DNA from: Azoarcus sp. | GTDB taxonomy: Bacteria; Pseudomonadota; Gammaproteobacteria; Burkholderiales; Rhodocyclaceae | Length of the DNA: 64,000 bases | Reading direction: 5' to 3' | Assembly: GCA_031272995.1 (NCBI GenBank) | Contig: JAISSY010000054.1 | Coordinates: 2,589-66,588 of the forward strand | Part shown: in pieces, positions 8,872-29,164 of the stretch | Numbering within the stretch: position 1 is the first letter of the stretch | Layout of the letters: the number at the start of each line of letters is the position of its first letter | Translations under genes and position numbers: made by a program | Notes under the pieces: generated by a model | Told to the model about the DNA's origin: nothing | What the model saw: the letters and a program-made list of their open reading frames with translations, nothing else | The model's database searches: none

Positions 8872-8903
8872 GGCCCCTCCCGCATCACACTGAATGCCAG
8901 CGA

Positions 8904-8970
8904 TTTTGTGACGATTTCACATTTTTCGCTAGCACTTTTTGTGATGAATCACATTTTTCGCTAGCGAAAA
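8904..8970. repeat. Tandem ~30-bp direct repeat with internal TGTGA...TCACA dyads, plus a 16-bp palindrome over the serC stop codon
   Basis: TTTTGTGACGATTTCACATTTTTCGCTAGC (8904-8933) and TTTTGTGATGAATCACATTTTTCGCTAGC (8937-8965); palindrome TTTTCGCTAGCGAAAA (8955-8970). Confidence 0.85.
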
Positions 8971-10079: not shown

Positions 10080-12694
10080 GATTCGCTTCCTTCCTCCGGC
10101 GCGGCGGGCGCGTCGCCCTCGTCTTCATCCGCGTCTGCGCTCGCGCTGCCTTCGGCGTCCTCCACCGATTCCTCCACCTTCTCGATGCTGGCGAGCACGG
10201 TGCCGTCGTCGAGGTTGATGAGGGTGACGCCCTGCGTCGAGCGTCCCATTTCGCGGATGCTTTCGACCGCGGTGCGGATGAGCACGCCGCCGGTGGAAAT
10301 CAGCATCACTTCGTCCTTCGGCTCGACCAGCGCCGCGCCGACCAGCGCGCCGTTGCGGTCGGAAGTCTGGATGGCAATCATGCCCTTGGTGCCGCGCCCG
10401 TGGCGGGTATATTCGGCAATCGGGGTGCGTTTGCCGTAGCCGTTTTCGGTGGCGGTGAGCACCGAATACTTTTCGTCGCGCGCCACCAGCATGGCGATGA
10501 CCTTCTGCCCGTCTTCGAGCGACATGCCGCGCACGCCGCGCGCGTCGCGGCCCATCGGGCGCACGTCGGTTTCGGCGAAACGCACCGCCTTGCCGGCGTC
10601 GGAGAAGAGCATCACGTCGCTGTCGCCGTCAGTAATCGCCACGCCGATGAGGTGGTCGCCGTCGTCGAGGTGGGCCGCGATGATGCCGGCCTTGCGCGGA
10701 TTGGCGAAGGCGGAGAGCGTCGTCTTCTTCACCGTGCCGTGCGCCGTGGCCATGAAGACGAAATGCTCCTCGTCGTAGGTCTTGACCGGCAGCACGGCGG
10801 TGATTTTCTCGCCCTCGATGAGCGGGAACAGGTTGACGATGGGCTTGCCGCGCGAGTTGCGCGCCCCTTCGGGCACTTCATAGACGCGCAGCCAGTAGCA
10901 GCGGCCACGACTGGAGAAACAGAGCACGGTGTCGTGGGTGTTGGCGATGAACAGGCGGTCGATGAAATCCTCGTCCTTCATCGCCGTCGCCTGCTTGCCG
11001 CGTCCGCCGCGCCGCTGCGCGCGGTAGTCGGCGAGCGGCTGGCGCTTGAAGTAACCGGCGTGCGAGAGCGTCACCACCATGTCTTCGGGGGCGATGAGGT
11101 CTTCGAGATTGATTTCGGCGGTGTTGAGCACGACTTCGGAGCGGCGCGGGTCGCCGTACTGGTTTTTGACCGCTTTCAGTTCGTCGCCGATGATGACGGT
11201 GATGCGTTCGGGGCGGGCGAGGATGTCGAGCAAATCGGCGATGAGGTCGATGACTTCGCGGTACTCAGAAACGATTTTGTCCTGCTCCAGCCCGGTGAGC
11301 CGTTGCAGCCGCAGTTCGAGTATCGCCTGCGCCTGCGCGTCGGAGAGCCGGTAGCCCTGCGCCGAAAGGCCGAATTCGGCGGGCAAATCCTGCGGACGGT
11401 AGCTGTCGGCCATGGCGCGCGAGAGCATTTCCTCCACCAGCGACGAGCGCCAGATGCGCGCCATCAATGCGCGCTTGGCTTCCGGCGGCGTCGGCGCAGC
11501 CTTGATGAGCGCGATGATTTCGTCGACGTTGGAGAGCGCCACCGCCAGACCTTCCAGCACGTGACCACGGTCGCGCGCCTTCCGCAACTCGAAAATGGTG
11601 CGGCGGGTGACGACTTCGCGCCGGTGTTCGAGGAAGCACACCAGCATTTCCTTCAGGTTCAGCAGCTTCGGCATGCCGTCGACCAGCGCCACCATGTTCA
11701 TGCCGAAGGTGTCCTGCAACTGCGTGTGCTTGTAGAGGTTGTTGAGCACCACTTCCGGCATTTCGCCGCGCTTGAGTTCGATGACCAGCCGCATCCCGGA
11801 CTTGTCGGATTCGTCCTGAATGTGGGAGATGCCCTCGATGCGCTTCTCGTTGACCAGTTCGGCGATTTTTTCCTGCAAGACCTTCTTGTTGACCTGATAG
11901 GGCAGTTCGTCGACGACGATGGCCTGCCGGTCGCTGTTGCCGATAGGCTCGAAGTGGGTGCGCGCCCGCATGATGACCTTGCCGCGCCCGGTGCGATAAC
12001 CCTCGTGCGCCCCGGCGATGCCGTAAATCAGCCCGGCGGTGGGGAAATCCGGCGCCTTGACGATGCCAATCAGGGTTTCGATGTCGGTGGCGGGGTCGTC
12101 CAGCAGGCGCAGGCAGGCGTCGACCACTTCGCCGAGATTGTGCGGCGGCACGTTGGTCGCCATCCCCACCGCGATGCCCGCCGAACCGTTGATGAGCAGC
12201 GATGGAATGCGCGTCGGCAGAATCAGCGGTTCCTGTTCGGAGCCGTCGTAGTTGGGGCCGAAATCCACCGTTTCCTTGTCGATGTCGGTGAGCATTTCGT
12301 GGCCGATGCGCGCCATGCGGATTTCGGTGTAACGCATCGCGGCGGGGCTGTCGCCGTCGACCGAACCGAAGTTGCCCTGCCCGTCGACCAGCATGTAGCG
12401 CAGCGAAAAATCCTGCGCCATGCGCACGATGGTGTCGTAGACGGCGGTGTCGCCATGCGGGTGGTATTTACCGATGACGTCGCCGACGATACGCGCCGAT
12501 TTCTTGTACGGTTTGTTCCAGTCGTTGGAGAGTTCGTGCATCGCAAAGAGCACGCGCCGGTGCACGGGCTTGAGTCCGTCGCGCGCATCCGGCAGCGCCC
12601 GCCCGACGATGACGCTCATCGCGTAGTCGAGGTACGCGTGGCGCATCTCCTCCTCAAGACTGATCGGCAGGGTCTCTTTGGCGAACTGTGTCAT
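10076..12694 (-). CDS. gyrA: DNA gyrase subunit A
   Basis: [15 protein letters not shown] catalytic Tyr, GyrA-box QRRGGRG. Confidence 0.98.
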
Positions 12695-12733
12695 GGGATT
12701 TTCCGGGCGAAACCCGCTGGTACGAAACGTGTG

Positions 12734-12742
12734 ATTCTACCA
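12734..12742 (-). promoter_or_regulatory. Putative extended -10 promoter for gyrA (TGGTAGAAT)
   Basis: Matches TGnTAnnnT about 40 bp upstream of the gyrA start. Confidence 0.5.
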
Positions 12743-12784
12743 CGCCGGGCCGGGTCGTCCGAAGGCTGCGTTGCGCCGGGAAAC

Positions 12785-13894
12785 TCAGGCCGCCGACGCC
12801 TCGCGCCCGGCGGCGAGCAGCCCGAAACGCTTCAACTGCGCGCGCAGAACGTTGCGCGAGATGCCCAACGACTTCGCCGCCCGCACCTGATTTTCACGCG
12901 CATGAGCGAAAGCGGCTCGCACCAGTTCTTCTTCCACCGTCTCGTAGAGACGCTCGCGCCCTTCGTCGAGCAGGCGACGAAAAACGCCCGCCAGTCGGGA
13001 GGCCGCGTCGCCCGCCTCGTCGTCGCCTCCACCCTGCGGCGCGAAAGCGCCCAGACCGTGCGGCAAGCGTAAATCGCCCACGTCGACGCGACCGTCCTGC
13101 GCCACGATCAGGGCGCGATGGATGACGTTTTCGAGTTCGCGGATGTTGCCTGGCCATTCGTACTCGAACAGCGCCGCCTGCGCCGCCGGGGTCAGCGTCG
13201 CTCCCCGCAGCCCCAGCTTGCCGCCATAGCGTTCGACGAACAGCCGCACCAGCGGCAGGATGTCGCCCGGTCGCTGTCGCAACGGCGGCAAGGTTACGGA
13301 AGCGATGTTGAGGCGGAAATAAAGATCCATGCGGAAATGTCCGGCGCGCACCGCATGAATCAAATCCACGTTGGTCGCCGCCACCATCCGCACGTCGATG
13401 GGCGTCGCCTTGCGCGCGCCGAGCCGCACCACACAACGTTCCTGTAACACGCGCAACAGTTTCACCTGCATGGAAAGCGGCAAATCGCCGATTTCGTCGA
13501 GAAATAGCGTGCCGCCATGCGCCGCCTCGAACCACCCGGCGCGCGCCTGTCCCGCGCCGGTGAATGCGCCGGCTTCGTGGCCGAACAACTCCGCCTCCAC
13601 CAGATTCTCGTTGAAAGCGCCGCAATTGACCGCCACGAACGGCCCGCTGCGCCCGCTTTTCTGGTGAATATGGCGCGCGATCAGTTCCTTGCCGGTTCCG
13701 GTTTCGCCCACCACCAACACCGAAGCGTCGCTCGCCGCCAGCCGTTCGACCTCCTCCAGCAGGCCCACCGAACGCGAGTCGCGGAACACCAACACGCGCG
13801 CCCGAATCGAGAGCGAATGCTCCTGCGGCGAGGCAAAAGTCAAAACCGTATTTTCTGGATTTCCGTGCAGTTGCCGGACGACACTCGATGCCAT
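12785..13894 (-). CDS. Sigma-54-dependent enhancer-binding protein, SfnR-like, lacking an N-terminal regulatory domain
   Basis: GETGTGKE, intact GAFTGA loop, LFLDEIG, WPGNIRELEN, C-terminal Fis-type HTH (NQVRAAKSLGISRNVLR). The short N-terminus LTF...SIRARVLVF resembles Pseudomonas SfnR as I recall it. Confidence 0.85.
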   Translation of the reverse strand: MASSVVRQLHGNPENTVLTFASPQEHSLSIRARVLVFRDSRSVGLLEEVERLAASDASVLVVGETGTGKELIARHIHQKSGRSGPFVAVNCGAFNENLVEAELFGHEAGAFTGAGQARAGWFEAAHGGTLFLDEIGDLPLSMQVKLLRVLQERCVVRLGARKATPIDVRMVAATNVDLIHAVRAGHFRMDLYFRLNIASVTLPPLRQRPGDILPLVRLFVERYGGKLGLRGATLTPAAQAALFEYEWPGNIRELENVIHRALIVAQDGRVDVGDLRLPHGLGAFAPQGGGDDEAGDAASRLAGVFRRLLDEGRERLYETVEEELVRAAFAHARENQVRAAKSLGISRNVLRAQLKRFGLLAAGREASAA

Positions 13895-13976
13895 ATTGGG
13901 TTCCGCGTTCCGTGAAGAATTTCACGCCTTCATCGACGCGAAGCATCGCCCGGCAACGCTCGCCGGCAAACAAAAA

Positions 13977-14010
13977 ATATCTGCTTTGAATCGAAGGACG
14001 GCGCAGATAT
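13977..14010. repeat. 8-bp perfect inverted repeat ATATCTGC-N18-GCAGATAT between vapC and the activator gene
   Basis: Seen directly in the sequence. Confidence 0.7.
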
Positions 14011-14026
14011 GTAAATGAAGATTTAT

Positions 14027-14425
14027 TTATTCAAGCAGGCGCACCGATTGCCCCTGCTTTTGCAGAATGGCGATGGCCTGTTTATCGAATGAGGCGAAGG
14101 TTTTGCCGCCCAGCATCGTGCCTTCGTAGGCCATAACGCCGTCAGCGAAATCGCCGCCCGCCTCCAGCACGGCAAGTCCGGCTTCCACGGCGGGACGATT
14201 CATCGTCACGCTGCGCACGGCCAACAAATCCCGAATGGTCGCCGCGACCTCCTCTTTCGACAATTTCGCGCCCTGACGGAGCACCCACACCAGTTCGCAC
14301 AGACAGGGCAGGGAAACAGCTATCAACGACGCCTCCCGAAGCAGTCTGGACGCCACCACGGCCTGCGCGGGATCGTCCTGCAACACCGCGCGCGCCAGCA
14401 CATTGGTATCGGCGGTGATCTTCAC
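14027..14425 (-). CDS. vapC: PIN-domain toxin (VapC family)
   Basis: GTG start at 14425 overlaps the antitoxin TGA. Acidic residues in ADTNV, CELVW, GDFADG and SFDK. Confidence 0.9.
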   Translation of the reverse strand: MKITADTNVLARAVLQDDPAQAVVASRLLREASLIAVSLPCLCELVWVLRQGAKLSKEEVAATIRDLLAVRSVTMNRPAVEAGLAVLEAGGDFADGVMAYEGTMLGGKTFASFDKQAIAILQKQGQSVRLLE

Positions 14426-14682
14426 GCTTCGTCCTTGCCGCCCGCCCACCCTGCGGCGGCGATTCGGTTCATTTCCTCGATCGTCAGCGGCTTTTTCAGC
14501 TTGCCCGCGTGCCGCCCGATGAAGTTCTCGATGCTGCCCGCCGGGCGCTCAGCGCGCAGGCGCAACTCGCCACCCGGCAGTTTGTCGAGTTCGATTCGCT
14601 CTCCCGGCTTGATGCCGAGGTATTGCAGCAAATCCCGTTTGAGCGTGACTTGGCCTTTCATGCTTACAGCGAGCGCGGTCAT
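14422..14682 (-). CDS. vapB: AbrB/MazE/SpoVT-family antitoxin (VapB)
   Basis: MTALAVSMKGQVTLKRDLLQYLGIKPGERIEL is the AbrB-fold signature; SD GGAG upstream. Confidence 0.88.
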   Translation of the reverse strand: MTALAVSMKGQVTLKRDLLQYLGIKPGERIELDKLPGGELRLRAERPAGSIENFIGRHAGKLKKPLTIEEMNRIAAAGWAGGKDEA

Positions 14683-14716
14683 CGCGGTCTCCAGCGGTTG
14701 GTTCCAAAACACCACC

Positions 14717-14744
14717 ATAGTAATGAAATTTTTACTTACCGCAA
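14717..14744 (-). promoter_or_regulatory. Putative sigma-70 promoter of vapBC with an imperfect palindromic operator
   Basis: TTGCGG-N16-TACTAT on the minus strand; imperfect dyad GTAATGAAAT/TTTTACTTAC across the spacer. Confidence 0.55.
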
Positions 14745-14756
14745 GCGCGAATTTCA

Positions 14757-14794
14757 CTGCTTCATTTGCAGCAATCGAGTTGCCAGCGCAGCAG
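14757..14794 (+). promoter_or_regulatory. Candidate tandem upstream activator sites (two YTGC-N7-GCAG dyads, 23 bp apart)
   Basis: CTGCTTCATTTGCAG (14757-14771) and TTGCCAGCGCAGCAG (14780-14794), 65-100 bp upstream of the -24 element. Confidence 0.45.
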
Positions 14795-14838
14795 CCGCTT
14801 GGGCGTCGCCGCCTTTTCGCACGAAACAAATTCCATTA

Positions 14839-14851
14839 ATTCAATTAGTTA
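14839..14851 (+). promoter_or_regulatory. IHF-like site
   Basis: ATTCAATTAGTTA has one mismatch to WATCAANNNNTTR and sits in an AT-rich tract just upstream of the sigma-54 promoter. Confidence 0.55.
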
Positions 14852-14856
14852 AAAAC

Positions 14857-14872
14857 TGGCACATCTCCTGCT
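14857..14872 (+). promoter_or_regulatory. Sigma-54 (-24/-12) promoter
   Basis: TGGCAC-ATCTC-CTGCT, exact GG-N10-GC spacing, about 70 bp upstream of the receptor start. Confidence 0.85.
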
Positions 14873-14943
14873 GTTGGGCGTTTCCTGAATACGCCGGGCG
14901 AAAGAATCCGGCGGCCCTTTCCCCTTCGATCATGGAGATTTCA

Positions 14944-17751
14944 ATGTTCCTCTCGCCCCCATCATCCCTGCGGATGAAGCCGTTGCGAGCCGCCATATTG
15001 GGAAGTCTGTTGCTGGTCGGCGCGCCGGTGGCTGCGCAAGACGGCGAGGTCAGCGTCGAAAGCCTGCAAAAGCAGGTCGAGGACTTGCGGAAAGCGTTGG
15101 AAGAAAGCCAGCGCGAGTTGGCAGCCGAACGGGCGCGCTCGTCCGCAGTTGCGCCCGCCGAGACGCCTCCCGCCGAAGTCCCCGCCGACCCGGCAGCCGC
15201 CGCACAGGAATCCGAATCCGCGCCCACGCCTGAGCCGGTCGCGGAGGATTCCACCGGCGAGCAGAGCCTTGAAGCAGTCGTCATCAAGCGGCGCAAGGTG
15301 CAGCCAATCGAAGAATTGAAGGAGACGCCGAAATCGGTTTCCGTCGTCACCGGAGCAGAACTGGAAAACCTCGGCGCCACCGACGTCACGCAGGTTCTGA
15401 ACCGGATCGGCAACGTCAACTTCAACTACGGCAACCCGCGCACCGGGTCGCTCACCCTGCGCGGCATCACCACCGGCTCCAACGACCAGATCGGCCCTAC
15501 GGTCGGAACCGAAATCGACGGCGTCCCCATCGCCTATACGCCGCTCTCCAACGGCTTTCCGTTCGTCGACATCGACTCGGTCGGGGTTGCGCGCGGCCCG
15601 GTCGGCACGCGTGGCGGCAGGATTTCCAACATTGGCCGGATCACGTTCAAATCCAAAAAGCCTACCTTCACGCCCGAAGCCAATATTTCCGTCACCCTCG
15701 GCGAATGGGACACCCTGAAAACGTCGGCGGTGGTGGGCGGGCCGGTGGTCGACGGACTGCTGGCGTGGCGCGGCACCATCCTGCGCGAACAGGGCGACGG
15801 CCCGTGGGAAACCCAATTCAAGGATCTCGAAGGTCGCGGCAGCTACAAGAACGTCGACCGCACTTTCGGACGCGTCCAGTTGTTGTTTACGCCAAGCGAA
15901 AATTTCAAGGCGAACCTGAGCGTCGAACATCAACCCAAGGGCAGCGAATGGGTGAACGGTCTCAGCCAGCGCCATCCCGAACCGACGACCTACCGCGACG
16001 GCACGCCACGCTCGGCGGCCTCCATCGACACCGCCTACAAGAAATATCAGCGCGACTGGTTCAACAAGGATCCGGCGCTGTGGGACACGACGCGCGACTA
16101 CTACCGCTATCCGGTCTACGTCGACAACAACGGCGCGATCATCACCAGTTCGAAGGGCTGGACGCTGAACGCCGAATTGAAAGTGCCCGGCCACACCATC
16201 GAATCCATCACCAGTTGGCGCTCGCACTGGTTCTCGGCGGCCAACGACGAAGGCACCCCCTACGACGTCACCAAGAGCGGCGGCTACATCACCAGCTACT
16301 CGCAACGCAGTCAGGAATTGCGCCTGACTTCGGACAAGGACGACAAGTTCGAATACGTCGCGGGACTTTTCTTCCTTTCCTCCGACAACGATTCCTTGGG
16401 TGGCCGCACACGTTGGGGCAACGACGCCGGCGCTTATCAGGCCAACAACGCGCAATACGCGGCGCTGAACGCCGACGGCGCCGGTCAGGCCATGCTGCGG
16501 GATTCCCTCAACGGCGCTTACAAATATCCGAGGGCATACGTTAAGAACAAGGAATTTTCGATTTTCGGCGAAACCGACTGGCACATCACCGCGCCGCTGA
16601 CGCTGACCACCGGCGCGCGCGTCTCGTGGGAGAAGCGCCGCACCGATCAGGAAAACGTGCTCGACGACCCCGGCGTCGGCGCCAACTTCTCCAAAGCCTT
16701 CGGCATCACCACCAACACTTCCACCGTGCTCGACACGACGGCGGCGGACGCGTTGGCGCAACAGTATTTCGGCTCGACCTACGCCAGTCTCTCGGCGGCG
16801 CAACAGTCGCAACTGCAACAGGCGGCGGCGGTTCGCAACGGCGCGTTGCAGCAGGGCACGCTATACGCGCGCAAGTCGGCGAAGCCGTGGGAAGGCGAGG
16901 TCTATGCCGGCAACATCGCGCTCACCGACAAGATCAACGAAAACCTGACCGTCTATGGCACGGTGCAATACGGCGAAAAAGGCGGCATCGCCCAGTTGAA
17001 CAGCGCCGGAGAGTCCGCGCCGGTCGACAAGGAACGCACCACCGGACTTGAAATCGGCTTCAGGTCGTCGTTGTTCAACGACGCCCTCACCTTGAACGCC
17101 GACGTGTTCATCAACGAGGTCAAGGATTTCCAGACCACGGTGGCCGAACTCGACCCGGCGGCGACCGCCGCCTATCAGGCCGCCAATCCTGGGCTTCCGG
17201 CCAGCGAAACCCAGCAATACCAGAGTCTGGTCGGCAACCTTCCCAAGGTGCGCATCAAGGGGGTGGAAATCGACGCCCTCTACAAGGGCGTCAAGAATCT
17301 GACCCTGCGGCTGGCGGCTTCCTACAACGACGCGCGTTACGCCGACGACACATATCTCGCGCAACCGAGCGACATCCAGTGGGGAGCGGGAACCGGGCGC
17401 AGCCAGTATTACAACGTCAAGGGCGAAACCCTGAGCAACGCGCCGAAATTCACCGCCATTCTGGGGGCAGATTACAGACGGCCCATCCTGGGCAACTGGG
17501 ACTTCCACGCCGCCGCCAACTACAAGTGGACGAGCGCCTATTACACCTCGAACGGCAGGCCCAAATACAACCGGCAGGACGCCTACGGGCTGCTCGACGT
17601 GGCCTTCGGCATAGGCCGTCGGGACGGCGCTTTCGACGCCAACATCATCATCCGCAACGCTCTCGACGAGGACTATCACGTCGAAGGCTGGAGCAGCTAC
17701 ACGCCGGCGACCCCGCGCTGGGCCGGCATCGTTTTCTCAAGCCACTTCTAA
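14944..17751 (+). CDS. TonB-dependent outer-membrane receptor (~935 aa) with an N-terminal coiled-coil extension
   Basis: SD GGAGA 5 nt before ATG 14944; signal peptide; TonB-box-like EAVVIK; plug (IDGVP...ARGPVGT); beta-barrel periodicity; C-terminal Phe (SSHF). Confidence 0.92.
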   Translation: MFLSPPSSLRMKPLRAAILGSLLLVGAPVAAQDGEVSVESLQKQVEDLRKALEESQRELAAERARSSAVAPAETPPAEVPADPAAAAQESESAPTPEPVAEDSTGEQSLEAVVIKRRKVQPIEELKETPKSVSVVTGAELENLGATDVTQVLNRIGNVNFNYGNPRTGSLTLRGITTGSNDQIGPTVGTEIDGVPIAYTPLSNGFPFVDIDSVGVARGPVGTRGGRISNIGRITFKSKKPTFTPEANISVTLGEWDTLKTSAVVGGPVVDGLLAWRGTILREQGDGPWETQFKDLEGRGSYKNVDRTFGRVQLLFTPSENFKANLSVEHQPKGSEWVNGLSQRHPEPTTYRDGTPRSAASIDTAYKKYQRDWFNKDPALWDTTRDYYRYPVYVDNNGAIITSSKGWTLNAELKVPGHTIESITSWRSHWFSAANDEGTPYDVTKSGGYITSYSQRSQELRLTSDKDDKFEYVAGLFFLSSDNDSLGGRTRWGNDAGAYQANNAQYAALNADGAGQAMLRDSLNGAYKYPRAYVKNKEFSIFGETDWHITAPLTLTTGARVSWEKRRTDQENVLDDPGVGANFSKAFGITTNTSTVLDTTAADALAQQYFGSTYASLSAAQQSQLQQAAAVRNGALQQGTLYARKSAKPWEGEVYAGNIALTDKINENLTVYGTVQYGEKGGIAQLNSAGESAPVDKERTTGLEIGFRSSLFNDALTLNADVFINEVKDFQTTVAELDPAATAAYQAANPGLPASETQQYQSLVGNLPKVRIKGVEIDALYKGVKNLTLRLAASYNDARYADDTYLAQPSDIQWGAGTGRSQYYNVKGETLSNAPKFTAILGADYRRPILGNWDFHAAANYKWTSAYYTSNGRPKYNRQDAYGLLDVAFGIGRRDGAFDANIIIRNALDEDYHVEGWSSYTPATPRWAGIVFSSHF

Positions 17752-17775
17752 CCACGAACAAACCGGAGCTTCTCC

Positions 17776-18213
17776 ATGAACGACAAGATCGTCAAACCCC
17801 TCGCCGCCCTCGTGGCCGCCGCCGCGCTGGCGAGCGCCGCGCCCGCCATCGCCCACCATGCCTTCGCCGCCGAATTCGACGCCAACCAACCCGTCGAATT
17901 GCGCGGCATCGTGACCAAGGCGCGCTGGGTCAATCCGCATAGCTGGCTGTACATCGACGTCAAGGACGCCTCCGGCGAAGTCACCAACTGGGGCTTCGAA
18001 TTCGGCGCGCCAAACACCTTGCAGAATCGCGGCCTGCAAAAAGCCGATCTGAAGGTCGGCACCGAAGTCTTCATCAAGGGCTACCGCTCCAAGAACGGCG
18101 GGCCGTTCGGCTATTCCGTCTTCATCACCCTGCCCGACGGTCGCAGCATCCAGACCGGCGGCGCGCAGGACGCGCCCAAGGACGAACCCGCCCAACCGGG
18201 AGCCGCCAGTTGA
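17776..18213 (+). CDS. DUF6152-type secreted protein
   Basis: Signal peptide ending AIA, then HHAFAAEFD...WVNPHSWLYIDV...WGFEFG; family recognised from memory of these motifs. Confidence 0.75.
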   Translation: MNDKIVKPLAALVAAAALASAAPAIAHHAFAAEFDANQPVELRGIVTKARWVNPHSWLYIDVKDASGEVTNWGFEFGAPNTLQNRGLQKADLKVGTEVFIKGYRSKNGGPFGYSVFITLPDGRSIQTGGAQDAPKDEPAQPGAAS

Positions 18214-19010
18214 ACGCCACCGAACCGCGCCGCCGCTTTCTGGGCGCTTTCGCGGCTCTGGCGCTGTCGACCGGCGTCGTCGCCATGACGGTTCCGGTCG
18301 GAGCCGCCGCGGCGGCGGGCAAGATTCCCCGTCTCGACAACGGCAAGCCCGATTTCTCCGGCATCTGGCAAACGACGAGCGCTGCCGAATACGACCTCGA
18401 ACCCCACATCGGTCGCGTCGACGCGCCGCCGGGGCCGGGAGTCGTGATCGACGGCGACGGCTTCATCCCTTATCTGCCCAAGGCGCTCGAACAAAAACAA
18501 AAGAACTTCGCGGCGCGGCAGAGCGCCGACCCCACCGCCAAAGGCTACACGCAGGGCGTGCCGCGCCAGATATACAGCCTTTATCCGTTCCAGATTCTGC
18601 AACGGGCGCGCGACGTCACCATCGTCCCGCAGTTCGGCTATTCGATTCGCACCATCCACACCAACGGCACCAAACACCCGACCGAGGACAACGATTTCTG
18701 GCTCGGCGATTCGCGCGGACATTGGGAAGGCGACACGCTGGTGGTGGACATCACCGATTTCTACGACGAAACCTGGCTCGACCGCGCCGGCAACTTCCAC
18801 TCCTCCGACCTGCACGTGGTCGAACGCTGGAAGTTTCTCGACGCCAACACCATCGAATACCGGGCGACGCTGGAAGACCCGCAGGTGTACGCGCAGCCAT
18901 GGACGCTGAGCGTGATTCTTCACCGTCACCGCGAAAAGAACTTTCAACTGATCGAGGACTACCGCTACACGCTGCCCTACGACCAGTACTACCCGCCCAA
19001 GAAACCCTGA
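18210..19010 (+). CDS. Uncharacterised periplasmic protein (paralog A), putative Tat substrate
   Basis: TTG start overlaps the upstream TGA. RRRFL Tat-like motif; GKPDFSGIW and GDSRGHWEGDTLVV motifs shared with the next gene. Confidence 0.8.
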   Translation: MNATEPRRRFLGAFAALALSTGVVAMTVPVGAAAAAGKIPRLDNGKPDFSGIWQTTSAAEYDLEPHIGRVDAPPGPGVVIDGDGFIPYLPKALEQKQKNFAARQSADPTAKGYTQGVPRQIYSLYPFQILQRARDVTIVPQFGYSIRTIHTNGTKHPTEDNDFWLGDSRGHWEGDTLVVDITDFYDETWLDRAGNFHSSDLHVVERWKFLDANTIEYRATLEDPQVYAQPWTLSVILHRHREKNFQLIEDYRYTLPYDQYYPPKKP

Positions 19011-19037
19011 GCCATCAGTGAAACGGGATATATCTCC

Positions 19038-20054
19038 ATGAAACGCATTTTTCCGCTTCCCTCTCTGACGCTGGCGCTATTGACCGCGACCGCCGCCGTC
19101 GCCCAAACGCCGCCGCCCGCCGCGCCCGGACAACCGCAAACGCAAGTCCGTCAGGGCGGCATCGGTTTCGAGACGAGCTTCCCGCAAATCGCCGCCGCGA
19201 AATGGACGGGGCCGCGACTCAAGGACGGACAACCGGACGTTTCCGGCCACTGGTCGAACACCATCGCCAATCACAACAATTTCACCGACCCGCAGGGCGG
19301 CATCATTGGCGACCCGACGCCGCGCGCGGTGGCTTTCCGCGCCGCCAATCATCCGCGCGCGGAGCGCGCCCCCAGCCGGGTGAGCGACCCGGCGGACGGT
19401 CAGCCGCCGTTCCAGCCCTGGGCGGCGGCGAAGGTGAAGGAGTTTCAGGAAAACTTCAACAATCCGGTCAAGCCCGAATACACCGAGCCGAACGCCCGTT
19501 GCGCGCCGGGAGGCATCCCGAAATCCTTCTACTGGCACGGTTACGAAATCCGCCAGTATCCGGGCTATGTGCTCATCATGTTCAACAACGGCTATCGCCT
19601 GATTCATCTCGACGGCAAGCCGCATCTGCCGGAGCGGCTGAAGTTGTGGAACGGCGATTCGCGCGGCCATTGGGAAGGCAACACGCTGGTGGTGAGCGCG
19701 CGCAACGTCAACGGCAAGGCGCTGTTCGGTCGCTCCGGCGAGTTCTTCAGCGAAAACGCCAGGGTCGACGAGCGTTTCATCTTCGCCAACGACGGCAAAC
19801 GCTACAACTATGTTGCGGTCATCACCGACCCGACCGTGTTTACGCGCCCCTTCACCGTCACCATTCCGGCGCGGCGCTACACCGAAGCCGACAAATACAA
19901 CGAGTGGCATTACGAAGCCACGCCCGCCAATTACGACGGCAAAGCGCCGCTGCACGAGCGTTACGAGCGCATCTGCCACGAGAACAACGGCGGCTTCGGC
20001 GCGCCGGCAATCACATCGGCGCCAGCCGCCCCACCTGCGGCGACGAAAAACTGA
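19038..20054 (+). CDS. Uncharacterised periplasmic protein (paralog B)
   Basis: Sec-type signal peptide; GQPDVSGHW, RCAPGGIP, GDSRGHWEGNTLVV, ICHENN. Confidence 0.82.
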   Translation: MKRIFPLPSLTLALLTATAAVAQTPPPAAPGQPQTQVRQGGIGFETSFPQIAAAKWTGPRLKDGQPDVSGHWSNTIANHNNFTDPQGGIIGDPTPRAVAFRAANHPRAERAPSRVSDPADGQPPFQPWAAAKVKEFQENFNNPVKPEYTEPNARCAPGGIPKSFYWHGYEIRQYPGYVLIMFNNGYRLIHLDGKPHLPERLKLWNGDSRGHWEGNTLVVSARNVNGKALFGRSGEFFSENARVDERFIFANDGKRYNYVAVITDPTVFTRPFTVTIPARRYTEADKYNEWHYEATPANYDGKAPLHERYERICHENNGGFGAPAITSAPAAPPAATKN

Positions 20055-20102
20055 ACCCCAACGACACCTCCTCTCCCATCACCATCGAAAGGTTTATCTC
20101 CC

Positions 20103-20597
20103 ATGTCCATCCTGCTTGAATTCGCCCAAGACTTGCAGCATTCGGGGCTTGGCACGGCGCTGGCCGAGTCGCGCTACGCGTTTCCGATCATCGAGGGCAC
20201 GCATCTGATCGGGCTTTCCATCTCGGTCGGATTGCTGTTTCTCATCGACCTGCGCCTGATCGGAGCGTTTCTGAAACAGGTGCCGGCGAACACGCTGCTG
20301 CGGCAGTTGTTGCCCATCGTGCTGTGGGGCTTCGCCGTCATCTTCGTCACCGGATTGCTGCTGTTTACCGCCGAGGCGGACACGATCATCGTCAGCCCGG
20401 TCTTCCCGATCAAGCTCCTGTTGCTGTTGCTGGGCGGCCTGAACGCGCTCTATTTCGAGTTCAAGCTCTCGCGCGAGCTGGAGTTCCAGAACAGCACCGC
20501 CGCCGTACTGCCCGCCAAGGTGCGCTACGCCGGCTACGCCTCGCTCATCCTGTGGGTGCTGGTCATCATCGCCGGGCGCATGTTGGCCTATCTCTAA
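20103..20597 (+). CDS. DUF6644-type 4-TM membrane protein (copy 1)
   Basis: EGTHLIG...DLRLIG, four hydrophobic segments, C-terminal LW...AGR. Confidence 0.75.
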   Translation: MSILLEFAQDLQHSGLGTALAESRYAFPIIEGTHLIGLSISVGLLFLIDLRLIGAFLKQVPANTLLRQLLPIVLWGFAVIFVTGLLLFTAEADTIIVSPVFPIKLLLLLLGGLNALYFEFKLSRELEFQNSTAAVLPAKVRYAGYASLILWVLVIIAGRMLAYL

Positions 20598-20615
20598 TAA
20601 TTCGGAGTCATACGC

Positions 20616-21089
20616 ATGTCTACACTCGACGTTTTGACCGCGCTGGCCGCCAGCCCTCTCGGACAGGCCATCGGCCAGTCCAACCACCTCGTGGGCGCGA
20701 CGGCGCAGGTGTTTCACATTCTGGGCTTCGTCGCCCTGCTCGCCTCGGTGGTGTTTATAAACCTGCGCCTGCTCGGACGGGTGTTGCCCAACGTGCCCTT
20801 GCAGGAGGTCGTTCGCCTGCCGGTGAAATTCATCTGGTGGGGATTCGGCTTCGCCAGCGTCAGCGGCCTGCTGATGTTCATCGCGGTGCCGACGCTGTAT
20901 TACGCCAACCCGGCGTTCATCCTCAAGCTGGTGCTGTACGTGCTCGCCATCGTCTTCCAGATCGTCCTCTACCAATACACGCTGCGCCAAAAGAATCCCG
21001 AAAAATCGCTGGTTTTGGCGAGCGTGGCGCTGTCGGTGATTCTGTGGTTCGGCGTCGGGCTGGCGGGTCGGGCGATCGGCTATGTCTAG
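20616..21089 (+). CDS. DUF6644-type 4-TM membrane protein (copy 2)
   Basis: QVFHILG...NLRLLG, FILKL, LW...AGR; same motif layout as copy 1. Confidence 0.75.
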   Translation: MSTLDVLTALAASPLGQAIGQSNHLVGATAQVFHILGFVALLASVVFINLRLLGRVLPNVPLQEVVRLPVKFIWWGFGFASVSGLLMFIAVPTLYYANPAFILKLVLYVLAIVFQIVLYQYTLRQKNPEKSLVLASVALSVILWFGVGLAGRAIGYV

Positions 21090-21678
21090 GATTCCCGCTC
21101 CGCGCCTCGCCGCGCCCACCGCGCTCGCGCTTGCGCTGTCCGCCCTCGTCGTGCTGGCGGCGGCTTGCAGCGACGGCCACGCCTCGCGCACGGCCACGCC
21201 GCCCTTCAAGGTGAGCGCCACGATTCAGGAAATCATGGCCAACATCATCGACCCCGCCGCCGACGAGACCTGGGAATCGGTGAGCGAGGAATGGGACAAA
21301 GACGGCCACCGCGAGCACAAACCCGAAACCGACGAGCAATGGCTCGCGGTGCTCAACCACGCCGTCGCCTTGCAGGAGTCCGCCGATTTGCTGACGATTC
21401 CGGGGCGCGCCGTCGCGCCGCCGGGAAAGAATCTGGAGGATTCCGGCGTCGCCGGCATTCTCGACGCCGCCGGCGTGGAAGCGGCGATCAAAATCGACCC
21501 GGAGGCTTACGCAGCCTTCATCGCCGCCTACCACGAAGCCGCGCATGAACTGGTCGTCGCCGCACAGAACCGGGACGTCGAAAGTTTGAAACTCGGCGGC
21601 GCGCGACTGGACGCGGTTTGCGAAGCCTGCCACGCCCGTTTCTGGTATCCCGATGCGCAAAAAGCTCCGACGCGCTGA
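21082..21678 (+). CDS. Lipoprotein c-type cytochrome, class II (four-helix-bundle) like
   Basis: Lipobox LAAAC; single CEACH near the C-terminus (nt 21619-21633); helical, Ala-rich. Confidence 0.78.
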   Translation: MSRIPAPRLAAPTALALALSALVVLAAACSDGHASRTATPPFKVSATIQEIMANIIDPAADETWESVSEEWDKDGHREHKPETDEQWLAVLNHAVALQESADLLTIPGRAVAPPGKNLEDSGVAGILDAAGVEAAIKIDPEAYAAFIAAYHEAAHELVVAAQNRDVESLKLGGARLDAVCEACHARFWYPDAQKAPTR

Positions 21679-22096
21679 GTTCGCGCTCCTCCTGTTGCTG
21701 CTGCTTCCCGCGCTGGTCGTCGCCGGGGCGGCGAAGAACAACGCCGTCCTGCGTCTGATGAAGGCCAAGGTCATTCCCGCCTCCACCGTCGTGTTCGAAG
21801 CGGCAGCCGAAGCGCCGGCGAACGGCGCCGGCTGGCAGGCGGCGCTGCAAGCAGCTGACGCGCTCGCCGCCGCAGCTGAGGAACTGAAGCCGACGCCGCG
21901 CGGTTTCGCGGCGACGCCATGGCAGAACGACGTCGCCGCTTTCGCCGACGCGGCGCGCGCCACACGTCAGGCCGTCGCCCGCCGCGACGCCGCCGCACTG
22001 GAAGCGTCGAACGGCGCGCTCTACCAAAGCTGCGAAACCTGCCACACCGACTACCCGCCGCGTGCGGTTTCCGCGCGCGTTTCCGCCCGACCCTGA
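21653..22096 (+). CDS. Periplasmic c-type cytochrome, class II like
   Basis: Signal peptide; C-terminal CETCH (nt 22031-22045); paralogous layout to the upstream cytochrome. Confidence 0.72.
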   Translation: MRKKLRRAEFALLLLLLLPALVVAGAAKNNAVLRLMKAKVIPASTVVFEAAAEAPANGAGWQAALQAADALAAAAEELKPTPRGFAATPWQNDVAAFADAARATRQAVARRDAAALEASNGALYQSCETCHTDYPPRAVSARVSARP

Positions 22097-22117
22097 ACTT
22101 CGTTTCGTTTTCATTCC

Positions 22118-22789
22118 ATGAGCTACGCACCCGCTTTCACCACTTCCTACGCCGCCCGCCAGCGCGACCCGCGCCGCCATTTGACCGGCATCGTTCTGGC
22201 GGTGATTTTCCACGTCGCGCTCGGCTATGCGCTGTTGAACGGGCTGGCGCGCGAGGTCGTCAAGGCGATCCGCGACCCGTTGTCGGTGCGGCTGATCGAG
22301 GAAATCAGGCCGTCGCCGCCGCCTCCCCCGCCGCCGCCGCCGAAAAAAATCGCCCGCGTGCAGGCCAAGCCGCGCGCCACGCCGCCGCCGGCATGGGTTC
22401 CGCCGCCGGAAGTTCAGGTCACCGCGCCGACGGTGGAGCCGCCAATCACCGTGGTGCAGCAGGCCGCACCCCCCGAACCCGCGCCTGCGGTGGCCGCGCC
22501 TGCGCCCGCTCCGGTCGCCGCCGCCATCGGCGTCACCTGCCCCAACCACCTGAGCATCCGCAGCAGCGTGGATTACCCGCCGCAAGCCTTGCGCCTGAAC
22601 AAAAGCGGAGAGGTGGTGGCGGAATTCGTCGTCGATACGAAGGGAAAGATCGGCAACGTCCGCATCGCCAAATCCAGCGACCCGATTTTCAACAAAGCCG
22701 TCACCGACGCCGTGCGCCGCTTCAACTGCGTCGGGCAAGGCCGTCCGGTGCGCGTCACCGTGCCTTTCCAGTTCGCGCTGGAAAACTGA
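22118..22789 (+). CDS. tonB: Energy transducer TonB
   Basis: N-terminal TM with SxxxH-type His (AVIFHVA), Pro-rich linker, YPPQA C-terminal domain. Confidence 0.9.
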   Translation: MSYAPAFTTSYAARQRDPRRHLTGIVLAVIFHVALGYALLNGLAREVVKAIRDPLSVRLIEEIRPSPPPPPPPPPKKIARVQAKPRATPPPAWVPPPEVQVTAPTVEPPITVVQQAAPPEPAPAVAAPAPAPVAAAIGVTCPNHLSIRSSVDYPPQALRLNKSGEVVAEFVVDTKGKIGNVRIAKSSDPIFNKAVTDAVRRFNCVGQGRPVRVTVPFQFALEN

Positions 22790-22823
22790 AGGCGCTCATC
22801 TTTTTATTTCCCCGGAGAACGTC

Positions 22824-23579
22824 ATGGCCGACCCTGTCATCGCTACCCATCTCGCCGCCGAAGTCATCGCCAATCCCTACGGGCTGGACGCCCTGTGGGC
22901 GCAAGGCGATTTCGTCGCCAAGGGCACCCTGATCATCCTGCTGCTGCTGTCGGCGGCAAGCTGGTACGTCATCTTCACCAAACTCTACGAACAGGAAAAA
23001 CTGCGCCGTCACGCCCGCGAAGCGCAGCGCAAATTCTGGATCGCCGCCGGCATCCGCGAAGGCGCAGACGCGCTCGATCCGAACGGCGCTTTCCGCTTCA
23101 TCGCCCAATCCGGGCTGAACGCCAAGGAGCGCCACGTCGGCCTGCTCGAACACATCGACCTCAACACCTGGATCGGCCAATCCATCCAGCGCGCGGTCGA
23201 AAACGTGCAGACGCGCTTGCAGGACGGGCTGGCGCTGCTCGCCACCGTCGGCTCCACCGCGCCGTTCATCGGGCTGTTCGGCACCGTCTGGGGCATCTAC
23301 CACGCCCTCACCGCCATCGGCATCGCCGGACAGGCGTCGATCGACAAGGTGGCCGGCCCGGTGGGCGAATCGCTGATCATGACCGCCATCGGTCTGGCAG
23401 TGGCCGTTCCCGCCGTGCTCGGCTACAACTGGCTGGTTCGCCGCAACAAGACCGCCCTCGACGAGGTGCGCGCCTTCGGCGCCGACTTGCACGCGACGCT
23501 GCTGGGCGGCGAAACCGCGCACAGCGCCGCCGCCAGCGTCGGCGTGGCGTCGGCCAAGCTCGCCGTGGCGCGGGGCTGA
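22824..23579 (+). CDS. exbB: ExbB / MotA-TolQ proton channel
   Basis: LATVGSTAPFIGLFGTVWGI and ESLIMTAIGL motifs. Confidence 0.93.
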   Translation: MADPVIATHLAAEVIANPYGLDALWAQGDFVAKGTLIILLLLSAASWYVIFTKLYEQEKLRRHAREAQRKFWIAAGIREGADALDPNGAFRFIAQSGLNAKERHVGLLEHIDLNTWIGQSIQRAVENVQTRLQDGLALLATVGSTAPFIGLFGTVWGIYHALTAIGIAGQASIDKVAGPVGESLIMTAIGLAVAVPAVLGYNWLVRRNKTALDEVRAFGADLHATLLGGETAHSAAASVGVASAKLAVARG

Positions 23580-23581
23580 CC

Positions 23582-24004
23582 ATGGGAATGAACGTCTCGA
23601 CCGGCGGCGACGACGAGGAAGTCATCTCCGCCATCAACACCACGCCGCTGGTGGACGTGATGCTGGTGCTGCTCATCATCTTTCTCATCACCATTCCGGT
23701 GGCGATTCAGGTCGTGCCGGTGCGACTGCCCGAACAGAACAATCTGGCGCTGGAAACCAAACCGGAGAACGTCAACCTGTCGGTGACGCGCGGCGGGCGG
23801 GTGTACTGGAATCAGGAATGGCTCGAAGACGACGCGCTGCTGGCGCGGCTGAAAGAGACCGCGACGCTTCAGCCGCAACCGGAAGTCCACATCCGCGGCG
23901 ACGGCGGCGCGCCATACGAGCACATCGGGCGCGTCGTGCTCGCCTGCCAGCGCGCCGGCATCGCCAAGGTCGGATTCATCACCGAACCGCCGCCACGCGG
24001 CTGA
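23582..24004 (+). CDS. exbD: ExbD/TolR (copy 1)
   Basis: INTTPLVDVMLVLLIIF and IRGD motifs; true start ATG 23582 lies inside the longer ORF-track entry. Confidence 0.92.
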   Translation: MGMNVSTGGDDEEVISAINTTPLVDVMLVLLIIFLITIPVAIQVVPVRLPEQNNLALETKPENVNLSVTRGGRVYWNQEWLEDDALLARLKETATLQPQPEVHIRGDGGAPYEHIGRVVLACQRAGIAKVGFITEPPPRG

Positions 24005-24017
24005 GGAGAAAGACATC

Positions 24018-24446
24018 ATGGCCATGACCGTAGGCTCTCCCGCCGCCGACGCCGCACCGGAAGTGATGGTGGACATCAACACCACGCCCTTGATCGACGT
24101 GATGCTGGTACTGCTCATCATGCTGATCGTCACCATCCCGATCCAGTTGCACGCGGTCAAGCTCGATCTGCCGCAAGGCAACCCGCCCCCGCCGCTGGTG
24201 GAGCCGGAAGTGGTGCGCATCAATATCGAAAGCGACGGAATCGTTTACTGGAACGGCGAAGCCGTCGAGAGCCTCGCCGTCCTCGAACCCCGTCTGCAAG
24301 CCGCCGCCCTGCAACCGACGCCGCCCGAAATCCACGTCCGCCCGGATCGCGCCGTGCTCTACGACACCGTCGCCGCCGTAATGGCGGCGATTCAGCGCAA
24401 CGGTTTGACCAAGGTGGGTTTGGTGGGGGCGGAACAGTTTTTGTGA
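24018..24446 (+). CDS. exbD: ExbD/TolR (copy 2)
   Basis: INTTPLIDVMLVLLIML motif. Confidence 0.92.
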   Translation: MAMTVGSPAADAAPEVMVDINTTPLIDVMLVLLIMLIVTIPIQLHAVKLDLPQGNPPPPLVEPEVVRINIESDGIVYWNGEAVESLAVLEPRLQAAALQPTPPEIHVRPDRAVLYDTVAAVMAAIQRNGLTKVGLVGAEQFL

Positions 24447-24483
24447 CGGGAACGCTCGCCGATGCGCGTGACCGCTTTCTCCC

Positions 24484-25266
24484 TCACCCGCCGACCTTCT
24501 CCAGCAGCCGCTTGATGAATTGCACCGGAATCGCGTAGCTGATGCCGGAGGGCTGGCTGAGGACGTTTTCCTTGCTGCCCTTGACGAGCACCATGTTGAC
24601 GATGCCGAGCACCTTGCCGCTGTCGGCATCGTAGAGCGGGCTGCCGCTATTGCCGGGGTAGGCGGTGGCGTCGAGCTGGTAGACGTGCATGGCGTCGCGT
24701 TGCAGGTTGCGAATCATCGTGGTGCTGAGTTCGGCGGCGTTGCGTTGCGGCATCGCGAACGGGGTGACGGCGGCGACGATGCCGCGATGGGTGGCGGGCA
24801 CCATGCCGAGCACGCCGCCGATGGGAAAGCCGGTGAAGGCGATGCGCTGGCCTTCGCGCGCCGCCTCTCCCAAGGGCAGCGCGGGCAACGGCGCGCCGTC
24901 GTCGAAACGCAGCAGGGCGAGATCGCGCACGGAGTCGATTTCCAGCCGCGTCAATTGCCGCACGCGGCGCTCCGGGCTTTCGCCGGCTTGCACCATGACC
25001 AGCGTCTCCATGCTTTCGCTGGCGAGGATTTCCGGCAAGACGTGCGCGTTGGTGACGACGTGACGACCGTTGCCGACCACGAAACCGGTGCCGCGAAACT
25101 GGAACGACGGGCTGCGAGTGCGCTGCCAAGTGCCGATGGCGACCACCGACGGTTTGACGCGCGCAATCGTGTCGACGAGATCGGCGCGCGCCGGAGCGGC
25201 GGCGGCAAGCGCCATGCAGGCCGCCAACGCGGCGCGCAACAGGCGACGACGCGCGTCCACGAACAC
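24484..25266 (-). CDS. Secreted trypsin-like (S1) serine protease
   Basis: Triad TNAHV / RDLALL / GNSGSP; signal peptide; SD GGAGG; GTG start overlaps the upstream TAG. Confidence 0.85.
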   Translation of the reverse strand: MFVDARRRLLRAALAACMALAAAAPARADLVDTIARVKPSVVAIGTWQRTRSPSFQFRGTGFVVGNGRHVVTNAHVLPEILASESMETLVMVQAGESPERRVRQLTRLEIDSVRDLALLRFDDGAPLPALPLGEAAREGQRIAFTGFPIGGVLGMVPATHRGIVAAVTPFAMPQRNAAELSTTMIRNLQRDAMHVYQLDATAYPGNSGSPLYDADSGKVLGIVNMVLVKGSKENVLSQPSGISYAIPVQFIKRLLEKVGG

Positions 25267-29163: not shown

Positions 29164-29164
29164 C

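Follow-up and report, generated by a model that had tools for sequence, protein, structure and literature searches.

A candidate sulfur-limitation operon combining TonB-dependent import with a periplasmic redox module in a termite-gut Azoarcus

What does a TonB-dependent receptor (TBDR) import when it is encoded together with its own energizing proteins, two cytochromes and a set of periplasmic and membrane proteins from uncharacterized families? The question is raised by an operon in a 64,000-nucleotide stretch of DNA from Azoarcus sp. (contig JAISSY010000054.1, positions 2,589 to 66,588; hereafter the window, by which we mean the whole stretch analyzed), which comes from a termite-gut metagenome and whose closest relatives are Azoarcus-like Rhodocyclales. 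Twelve co-oriented genes on the plus strand, with intergenic gaps of -26 to +48 bp, encode in order the TBDR, a DUF6152 protein, two secreted proteins (unkA and unkB), two DUF6644 membrane proteins, two putative cytochromes (cytA and cytB), TonB, ExbB and two copies of ExbD (Table 1). The initial annotation had counted eleven genes; its gene calls, order and family assignments were otherwise all reproduced by profile searches. Judged by this layout, the twelve genes are a co-transcribable unit behind a putative sigma-54 promoter. A scan of positions 12600-24700 found no sigma-70-like promoter against 1.6 expected, and terminator-like sites were not enriched (15 vs 14.5 in shuffled sequence). 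We read the operon tentatively, at a little under an even chance, as a member of a sulfur-limitation regulon that would supply dedicated TonB-energized import and a periplasmic redox module. Three independent if indirect lines of evidence, namely the composition of the encoded proteins, the genes adjoining related clusters and the family of the candidate activator, appear to converge on sulfur.

The proteins encoded by the operon are strikingly poor in sulfur. Together the twelve products contain 26 methionines and cysteines in 3106 residues (0.84%), compared with a median of 2.6% for the 27 other genes of the window (Mann-Whitney p 5e-4). The 935-residue TBDR has no cysteine and only two internal methionines, of which one lies in the signal peptide; the DUF6152 protein has neither amino acid, and unkA has one methionine and no cysteine. 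Values are 0.4-0.6% for the two DUF6644 proteins and ExbB (ExbB 0.4%) and 0.9% for TonB. What sulfur remains in the cytochromes is found at functional positions, these being the lipobox cysteine, the CxxCH motif and one internal methionine in each, which we read as the axial heme ligand. Receptors orthologous to the TBDR in other genomes contain 0-0.5% Met+Cys and unrelated TBDRs in the same loci 0.4-2.5%. Such near-total removal of methionine and cysteine is a clear, textbook-style case of elemental economy.

To place the operon among its relatives, one genome per species was scanned for relatives of unkB, giving at least 582 stretches that encode them, of which 79 loci were fetched; conservation was counted over 33 proteobacterial loci. 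Nearly all of these contain the core DUF6152-unkA-unkB, in an order that hardly varies; a TBDR lies within 10 kb in at least 22, the DUF6644 pair is found in 19 and cytA in at least 13. Homologs of the activator (42-62% identity) occur in six loci and tonB or exb genes in about three. The expectation that the genes recur as a unit was thus borne out for the core, whereas linkage of tonB-exbBD and of the activator is seen in a minority of loci only. The closest relative, an Azoarcus metagenome-assembled genome (MAG), contains the same parts, differently ordered, together with DsbD and a redoxin, and methanotrophs have a six-gene version without a receptor. Carriers include methylotrophs, cellulose degraders, sphingomonads and soil Acidobacteria. 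Chance adjacency of the genes was rejected because of their synteny and the promoter architecture that they share.

The putative activator gene lies upstream of the operon on the minus strand. Its product matches Sigma54_activat over residues 39-200 (E 3e-66), followed by AAA_lid_14 and a C-terminal Fis-type HTH domain (HTH_8), and its translation includes a Walker A motif (GETGTGKE) and a GAFTGA loop. Because the AAA+ domain begins at residue 39 of 369, the protein has no receiver or sensory domain, and the best 120 homologs are all of similar length (335-422 aa) and likewise domain-less. A homolog with 63% identity from Thauera is named SfnR by its source and adjoins Sbp-like and TOBE genes, three acyl-CoA-dehydrogenase-like genes and a Bac_luciferase monooxygenase gene; more generally, homologs with 63-73% identity are located in clusters of organosulfur or sulfonate-transporter genes. 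We infer that the activator is SfnR-like from its architecture, the source annotation and gene context, rather than from comparison with the studied Pseudomonas SfnR. Its match to the NCBIfam model for PEP-CTERM-box response regulators is well below the cut-off of that model.

The sigma-54 promoter proposed in the initial annotation is present before the operon (TGGCACatctcCTGCT). The window contains four matches to sigma-54-type motifs against 1.85 expected, which is weak evidence alone; the case for this promoter comes from its recurrence. Its sequence is identical in L002, a near-identical metagenome contig (98-100% protein identity to the locus in the window), and in many loci orthologous cluster genes are preceded, at a distance of 8-100 bp, by an equivalent motif. 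A pattern search allowing at most one mismatch found 55 such motifs in the 579 kb that the proteobacterial loci comprise; about 32 fall within ~110 bp upstream of a cluster gene, a zone that makes up ~2% of the sequence. The genes behind these motifs are those for the TBDR, DUF6152, a second unkA, DUF6644a, cytA or a small rhodanese-like neighbor.

Upstream of the operon promoter there is an imperfect palindrome, TGCTTCATTTGCAGCA, which is a candidate activator site. Its pattern, TG[CT]T-N8-A[AG]CA, occurs in 25 of 33 regions comprising the 230 bp upstream of cluster sigma-54 promoters, compared with 1.4 +/- 1.1 (maximum 5 in 200 trials) in random windows of the same loci, which argues for the proposed control by sigma-54 and an enhancer-binding protein. 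The combination of promoter and site spans betaproteobacterial and gammaproteobacterial loci, most of them with the sigma-54 motif directly 5' of cluster genes. In Thauera butanivorans, where the gene of a 73%-identical activator adjoins an operon for an NMT1-type ABC transporter, that operon is preceded by the same combination. Seven sphingomonad (Alphaproteobacteria) loci have at most two sigma-54 motifs each, none of them 5' of a cluster gene; there a CysB-family LysR regulator adjoins the cluster instead, scoring 373 bits with the NCBIfam CysB-family model, just under the cut-off of 402. In the window a second sigma-54-like motif, TGGCAACTCGATTGCT, is near-consensus, stands back to back with the operon promoter, faces the activator gene and shares bases with the candidate activator site. 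Transcription of the activator gene might start from it, a form of autoregulation, and would in this strain first pass through inserted toxin-antitoxin genes.

Those inserted genes account for a departure from the expected layout. A divergent activator had been described upstream of the operon, and it is indeed there, but it is not directly adjacent, being separated from the operon's regulatory region by a 711-bp cassette that encodes a PIN-domain toxin and a small antitoxin. Contig L002 lacks exactly those 711 bp, and the cassette is therefore a recent, strain-specific insertion, polymorphic within the population, and no part of the system.

Genes adjoining the related clusters were surveyed as 149 open reading frames (ORFs) within 3.5 kb of the cluster and ranked by Pfam family. 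The commonest families were LysR (8), SMP-30/gluconolactonase-like (7) and dienelactone hydrolase (4), followed by the family 2A encapsulin shell, sulfite-oxidase-like molybdoenzymes, rhodanese and cytochrome b561 (3 each). All eight LysR proteins fall in one cluster whose representative scores as CysB-family. A family 2A encapsulin operon with cysteine desulfurase cargo, rhodanese and serine O-acetyltransferase adjoins the core in five to six loci overall, in different lineages, and its proteins are also low in sulfur. In Acinetobacter the desulfurase encapsulin operon of this family is induced about ten-fold by sulfur limitation, and sulfur starvation also induces a similar system in Synechococcus (PMC10836720). 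Apart from being neighbors that share a low sulfur content, the two operons differ; the encapsulin is a cytoplasmic sulfur store, has no components in common with the operon described here and is absent from the window. Small secreted rhodanese-like proteins are encoded near the cluster in eight loci. Several of them have no cysteine and therefore cannot be active sulfurtransferases. The rhodanese label itself was not retained for this family, since it went undetected at strict thresholds; one member passes the Pfam cut-off, at 25.9 bits.

To our knowledge, bacterial sulfur scavenging is currently explained by sulfate/thiosulfate ABC transport and by the ssu, tau, ats and sfn/msu systems; the components typical of ssu, tau, ats or sfn/msu, namely an FMNH2-dependent monooxygenase, an alpha-ketoglutarate dioxygenase or a sulfatase with an ABC transporter, were absent from the 25 commonest Pfam families of the 149 neighboring ORFs. 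Studies cited in PMC8234197 describe SfnR of Pseudomonas putida as a CysB-regulated, sigma-54-dependent activator of dimethylsulfone utilization. The operon resembles the SfnR/CysB regulon (sfnFG, msuEDC, ssu) in having a sigma-54 promoter and an activator that consists of AAA+ and HTH domains only, in the location of activator homologs beside Bac_luciferase, acyl-CoA-dehydrogenase-like, Sbp-like, TOBE or NMT1-type ABC transporter genes, and in the CysB-family regulator that alphaproteobacterial clusters bear instead. It shares no structural genes with sfn, msu or ssu, however, and lacks a flavin monooxygenase, an FMN reductase and an ABC transporter. The Pseudomonas gene sftP encodes a TonB-dependent receptor. 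It belongs to the sulfate-ester cluster atsACBR-sftR-atsK-sftP (PMC3596284), which, like the present operon on the sulfur reading, places a TBDR within a sulfur-scavenging cluster under a dedicated regulator; here, in contrast, there is no sulfatase or dioxygenase, but a periplasmic module predicted to comprise OB-fold and calycin proteins, a putative heme-protein chain and a separate tonB-exbB-exbD-exbD set.

The proteins that would make up the periplasmic module are DUF6152, unkA and unkB. In DUF6152 the residues H27, H28, E33, D35 and N53-P54-H55 are invariant in 55 homologs, and the mature protein begins His-His, since its signal peptide ends in AIA. An AlphaFold2 (AF2) model of the protein has a pLDDT of 80 and matches the OB domains of LysRS and RPA, so that an OB fold is predicted, and the N-terminal cluster of His-His, Glu, Asp and His looks like a metal or ligand site. 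A CopC fold was considered and rejected, as the model matches OB domains and Pfam gave no CopC match.

The unkA and unkB proteins are paralogs (32% identity, E 7e-29) with Sec-type signal peptides and no Pfam or NCBIfam match even at E 10. Homologs of unkA share the motif W-GDSRG-WEGDTLVV, and unkB has a conserved pair of cysteines, Cys155 and Cys313. Tat export of unkA was also considered, as RRRFL is present in the signal peptide of the window protein (18210-18330), and was dropped as a family feature because only 6 of 74 homologs have it. Orthologs of unkB that are 62-79% identical occur in Azoarcus, Methylomonas, Methylococcus, Cellvibrio, Steroidobacteraceae, Undibacterium and others. The AF2 model of unkB (pLDDT 79, pTM 0.76) is mostly beta-barrel; its best fold match is CRABP2 (E 7e-4, target TM 0.60), followed by NanoLuc, UnaG, avidins and anticalins (E 5e-3 to 0.1), a weak but consistent signal for a calycin/FABP-like beta-barrel. 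Neither unkB nor DUF6152 had a match in a PDB sequence search, so the relation of unkB to calycins is not seen at the sequence level. The unkA/unkB family comprises 10,748 representative clusters at 50% identity, and no Pfam model was found for its core domain in 98 diverse members scanned. In one representative, P0472 (330 aa), the family domain is fused at its N-terminal side to a cytochrome c domain with a CxxCH motif, which hints slightly at a redox partnership.

The two DUF6644 proteins are likewise paralogs (32% identity), each with one invariant histidine in its first hydrophobic segment (His34 in DUF6644a). They are probably, or at least possibly, a membrane heterodimer holding a b-type heme between these single histidines. 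We regard them as a probable membrane electron-transfer partner mainly because Cellvibrionaceae encode a canonical cytochrome c' and a cytochrome b561 directly after unkB (L005 11434-12844, L033 10937-12273, L088 13790-15140), in the position that the DUF6644 pair and cytA occupy here; in two of these loci neither DUF6644 nor cytA was detected nearby. Membership of the DUF6644 proteins in the CopD family was rejected, since DUF6644a alone of the two gave a match and its score (16.4 bits, E 0.012) is far below the cut-off of 32.1.

Each cytochrome carries its CxxCH close to the C-terminus (cytA, CEACH at 180-184 of 198; cytB, CETCH at 127-131 of 147), and only the C-terminal third aligns with Cytochrom_C_2 (PF01322). 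CytA has a lipobox, LAAAC, and its homologs conserve the CxxCH, an FWYP motif and the region of Met52; in a PDB sequence search its only relevant match was a class II cytochrome c (E 0.57). It may be one of the class II (c'-type) monoheme cytochromes, serving as an electron carrier with His/Met ligation of the heme. A cytB counterpart follows cytA in the Azoarcus MAG and is rarely detectable elsewhere. The TBDR matches Plug (E 1e-14) and TonB_dep_Rec_b-barrel (E 8e-26), carries an N-terminal extension of ~100 aa that is coiled-coil or low-complexity, and aligned with solved receptors in the PDB sequence search through its plug region only.

Taken with the weak CopD likeness, the predicted folds suggest a quinol-linked periplasmic redox module. 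In MsrPQ/YedYZ a periplasmic enzyme is fed by a membrane heme-b protein. In FpvGHJK, ferripyoverdine is reduced after TonB-dependent import (PMC7760384). Both resemble the proposed module in that periplasmic exposure or import is followed by membrane electron supply to a soluble partner, but the operon encodes neither a molybdoenzyme nor a known reductase, its terminal periplasmic proteins belong to uncharacterized families and the heme of DUF6644 is a prediction. Five central protein families of the operon are without a characterized member. The initial annotation knew of no functional description of the gene set, and the literature searches agree, with DUF6152 and DUF6644 mentioned in no paper found and the searches on sulfur starvation and TonB returning general context with no account of this gene set. 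The system would be known in kind, as a TonB scavenging system for nutrient limitation, and its processing module may be categorically new.

Several observations weigh against the sulfur reading. The link to sulfur was originally a guess from the type of regulator, and it has since been strengthened by the Met/Cys depletion, by sulfur-related neighbors elsewhere and by activator homologs in organosulfur or sulfonate clusters, but no sulfur genes lie beside the operon in this window. The absence of a sulfatase, monooxygenase or ABC transporter had been pointed out before and holds, for Pfam and NCBIfam searches found none of these, and no dioxygenase, among the twelve products or in the immediate flanks; nor is there a recognizable sulfur-processing enzyme or an inner-membrane transporter for a product in the operon. 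The name SfnR of the Thauera homolog is a source annotation only, and neither the conserved upstream motif nor a promoter was found near the sfn-like genes of that locus, so that a proposed tie between the motif and the locus was dropped. Acidobacterial paralogs of DUF6152, unkA and unkB contain 2.5-3.2% Met+Cys and are not depleted; depletion is therefore a property of the proteobacterial cluster and not of the folds, and the families are not intrinsically tied to sulfur. The compositional signal is also partly confounded, because outer-membrane and periplasmic proteins are generally sulfur-poor, an effect that the controls reduce and do not remove. Finally, the N-terminal His-His motif and the weak CopD match point to metal handling.

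The last of these leads to the main rival, acquisition of copper or iron. CopC/CopD is a system of periplasmic-to-cytoplasmic copper import in which a small secreted protein with an N-terminal histidine acts with small multi-pass membrane proteins. DUF6152 with its His-His, Glu, Asp and Asn-Pro-His residues could on this account be a CopC-like metallochaperone and the small, multi-pass DUF6644 proteins, each with one conserved histidine, CopD-like importers, while the TBDR with its dedicated TonB system would bring in a metal chelate or ion and the cytochromes would reduce Cu(II) or Fe(III) before transport. The occurrence of the cluster in methanotrophs and methylotrophs, the few loci with SIP, PepSY_TM or siderophore-type TBDR neighbors, and the ferripyoverdine precedent for periplasmic reduction after TonB-dependent import (PMC7760384) fit such a role. 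We nevertheless consider it unlikely. The receptor and the periplasmic proteins are nearly free of methionine and cysteine, the usual Cu(I) ligands, the fold predicted for DUF6152 is OB and not CopC, and the CopD score of DUF6644a is about half its cut-off. Regulation also looks different, with a domain-less sigma-54 activator or a CysB-family LysR in these loci and no Fur, CueR, CopRS or ECF/anti-sigma types in the 25 commonest Pfam families of the neighbors, and those neighbors that recur are related to sulfur and not to metals.

A second alternative takes the depletion at face value and dispenses with a sulfur substrate. As even TonB and ExbB are depleted, the operon might be a sulfur-sparing replacement set, by which a starved cell swaps its housekeeping TonB uptake and periplasmic electron transfer for low-sulfur isoforms. 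The undepleted acidobacterial paralogs show that the families can work outside a sulfur context, and the lack of a sulfur-specific enzyme in the operon is as this alternative would have it. Replacement, however, would be of something, and in the proteobacterial loci the core showed no sulfur-rich counterpart, second copies being depleted as well where they are present; the sulfite-oxidase-like, rhodanese and desulfurase-encapsulin neighbors moreover suggest sulfur chemistry over economy, and we hold this alternative to be very unlikely. Least probable is a defense against nitric oxide, oxidants or reactive sulfur species built around the c'-type cytochromes and stripped of oxidizable methionine and cysteine, for, although the similarity to the cytochrome c' family, the resistance of such proteins to oxidation and neighbors such as AhpC/TSA-redoxin, DsbD, catalase, hemerythrin/ScdA, globin and an Rrf2 regulator in some loci are in its favor, these neighbors are sporadic (at most two loci each), a receptor equipped with a TonB-ExbBD motor of its own indicates import, and the conserved N-terminal methionine of cytA, which we take to be an axial ligand, suits a low-spin electron carrier better than a gas-binding c'.

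Under the sulfur-limitation reading, the parts could work together as follows. The domain-less SfnR-type activator, whose activity would depend on its abundance or on a partner, would fire the operon when sulfur is scarce. The TBDR, powered by its own TonB-ExbB-ExbD2, would carry through the outer membrane a sulfur source that is scarce, bulky or poorly soluble, and the two calycin-like barrels and the OB-fold protein would hold or process it in the periplasm. A DUF6644 heterodimer with b-type heme would link the quinone pool, by electron exchange, to His/Met-ligated c'-type cytochromes, and these would serve the periplasmic proteins. The substrate would be reduced or oxidized to sulfide, sulfite or thiosulfate, to be taken up by ordinary transporters. 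Sulfane or elemental sulfur, or an organic (poly)sulfide or disulfide, is our first guess at the substrate class because of the hydrophobic barrel, the secreted rhodanese-like neighbors and the adjacent sulfur-storage operons, but it is a weak guess and probably wrong. Spelled out in full, the proposal would be a widespread periplasmic route for assimilating zero-valent, sulfane or other hydrophobic reduced sulfur when cells starve for sulfur, with import by the TBDR, handling by calycin-like barrels and a His-His OB-fold metalloprotein, and quinol electrons delivered through a CopD/HemJ-like DUF6644 heme-b heterodimer and c'-type cytochromes. Such chemistry would be new and would fall to five families lacking a characterized member, but in this specific form we think the proposal distinctly unlikely.

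If the sulfur reading is true, the operon adds a different type of module to sulfur scavenging. If it is wrong, what remains is a periplasmic redox module that is linked to TonB and widely conserved. Its carriers number at least several hundred species representatives, and its core family, with more than 10,000 sequence clusters, has no Pfam model. The sigma-54 promoter together with the TGYT-N8-ARCA site makes the putative regulon computationally traceable across beta- and gammaproteobacteria.

Coordinates of the features are collected in Table 1. The operon is flanked in the window by gyrA, serC, pheA, hisC and tyrA on one side and by genes for a protease, UDP-glucose dehydrogenase and PEP-CTERM-type regulators on the other.

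Table 1. Features of the operon and its upstream region, with positions in the window
Feature	Position	Strand	Remarks
Sigma-54 activator (369 aa)	12785-13894	-	Sigma54_activat + AAA_lid_14 + HTH_8
PIN-toxin/antitoxin cassette	14026-14736		711 bp; between activator and operon regulatory region
PIN-domain toxin	14027-14449	-	in cassette
Small antitoxin	about 14422-14718	-	in cassette
Candidate activator site TGCTTCATTTGCAGCA	14758-14773		imperfect palindrome; 99 bp upstream of -24 element
Second sigma-54-like -24/-12 motif TGGCAACTCGATTGCT	14770-14785	-	pattern search, 1 mismatch
Operon sigma-54-type promoter TGGCACatctcCTGCT	14857-14872	+	GG-N10-GC spacing; ~70 bp before TBDR start
TBDR (935 aa)	14944-17751	+	Pfam Plug + TonB_dep_Rec_b-barrel
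DUF6152 periplasmic protein	17776-18213	+	Pfam 110.4 bits, cut-off 27
unkA, secreted (266 aa)	18210-19010	+	no Pfam/NCBIfam match
unkB, secreted (338 aa)	19038-20054	+	no Pfam/NCBIfam match
DUF6644 membrane protein a (164 aa)	20103-20597	+	Pfam DUF6644 39.4 bits, cut-off 27
DUF6644 membrane protein b (157 aa)	20616-21089	+	Pfam DUF6644 38.7 bits, cut-off 27
cytA, probable lipoprotein (198 aa)	21082-21678	+	CEACH; Cytochrom_C_2 25.1 bits, below cut-off 26.5
cytB, small secreted (147 aa)	21653-22096	+	CETCH; Cytochrom_C_2 21.0 bits, below cut-off 26.5
TonB	22118-22789	+	TonB_C E 4e-15
ExbB	22824-23579	+	MotA_ExbB E 1e-30
ExbD 1	23582-24004	+	ExbD E 9e-27
ExbD 2	24018-24446	+	ExbD E 1e-26

The window sequence was matched in DNA runs only, from termite gut and one other source. 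A Methylophilus locus did match RNA runs, whose records gave no usable information on growth conditions. A plasmid collection gave only distant matches in Novosphingobium (24-26% identity) with uninformative annotation.

Some further gene associations were seen in the fetched loci. In Acidobacteria (mainly Vicinamibacterales) and Gemmatimonadaceae (loci L039-L082), DUF6152, unkA and unkB occur in several copies per 20-kb locus, often beside NHL/SGL beta-propeller proteins and CarboxypepD_reg-type receptors. In Acidobacteria paralogs of the three core genes are numerous within each genome. A gene pair encoding DUF1501 (sulfatase-superfamily-like) and DUF1549/DUF1553 adjoins the cluster in L012 (14568-18416) and L022 (1-3578), in the latter behind a sigma-54-like promoter. 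Two loci (L089 1-4656, L091 1278-6695) contain a module that encodes an FAD_binding_2 flavoprotein together with a small ferredoxin and an NMT1-type ABC transporter; one copy adjoins a methanotroph core cluster and the other the 73%-identical activator homolog of Thauera butanivorans.

Within the window, genes for a large TPR protein and a sigma-54 response regulator, identified by Pfam, lie just downstream of the operon on the minus strand (26587-30613); we read them as a PrsT/PrsR-type pair (PEP-CTERM/exosortase) that is unrelated to the operon. An ATPase gene with AAA_14 and DUF4143 domains (7516-8916, minus strand) sits between serC and pheA amid the housekeeping aromatic amino-acid genes.

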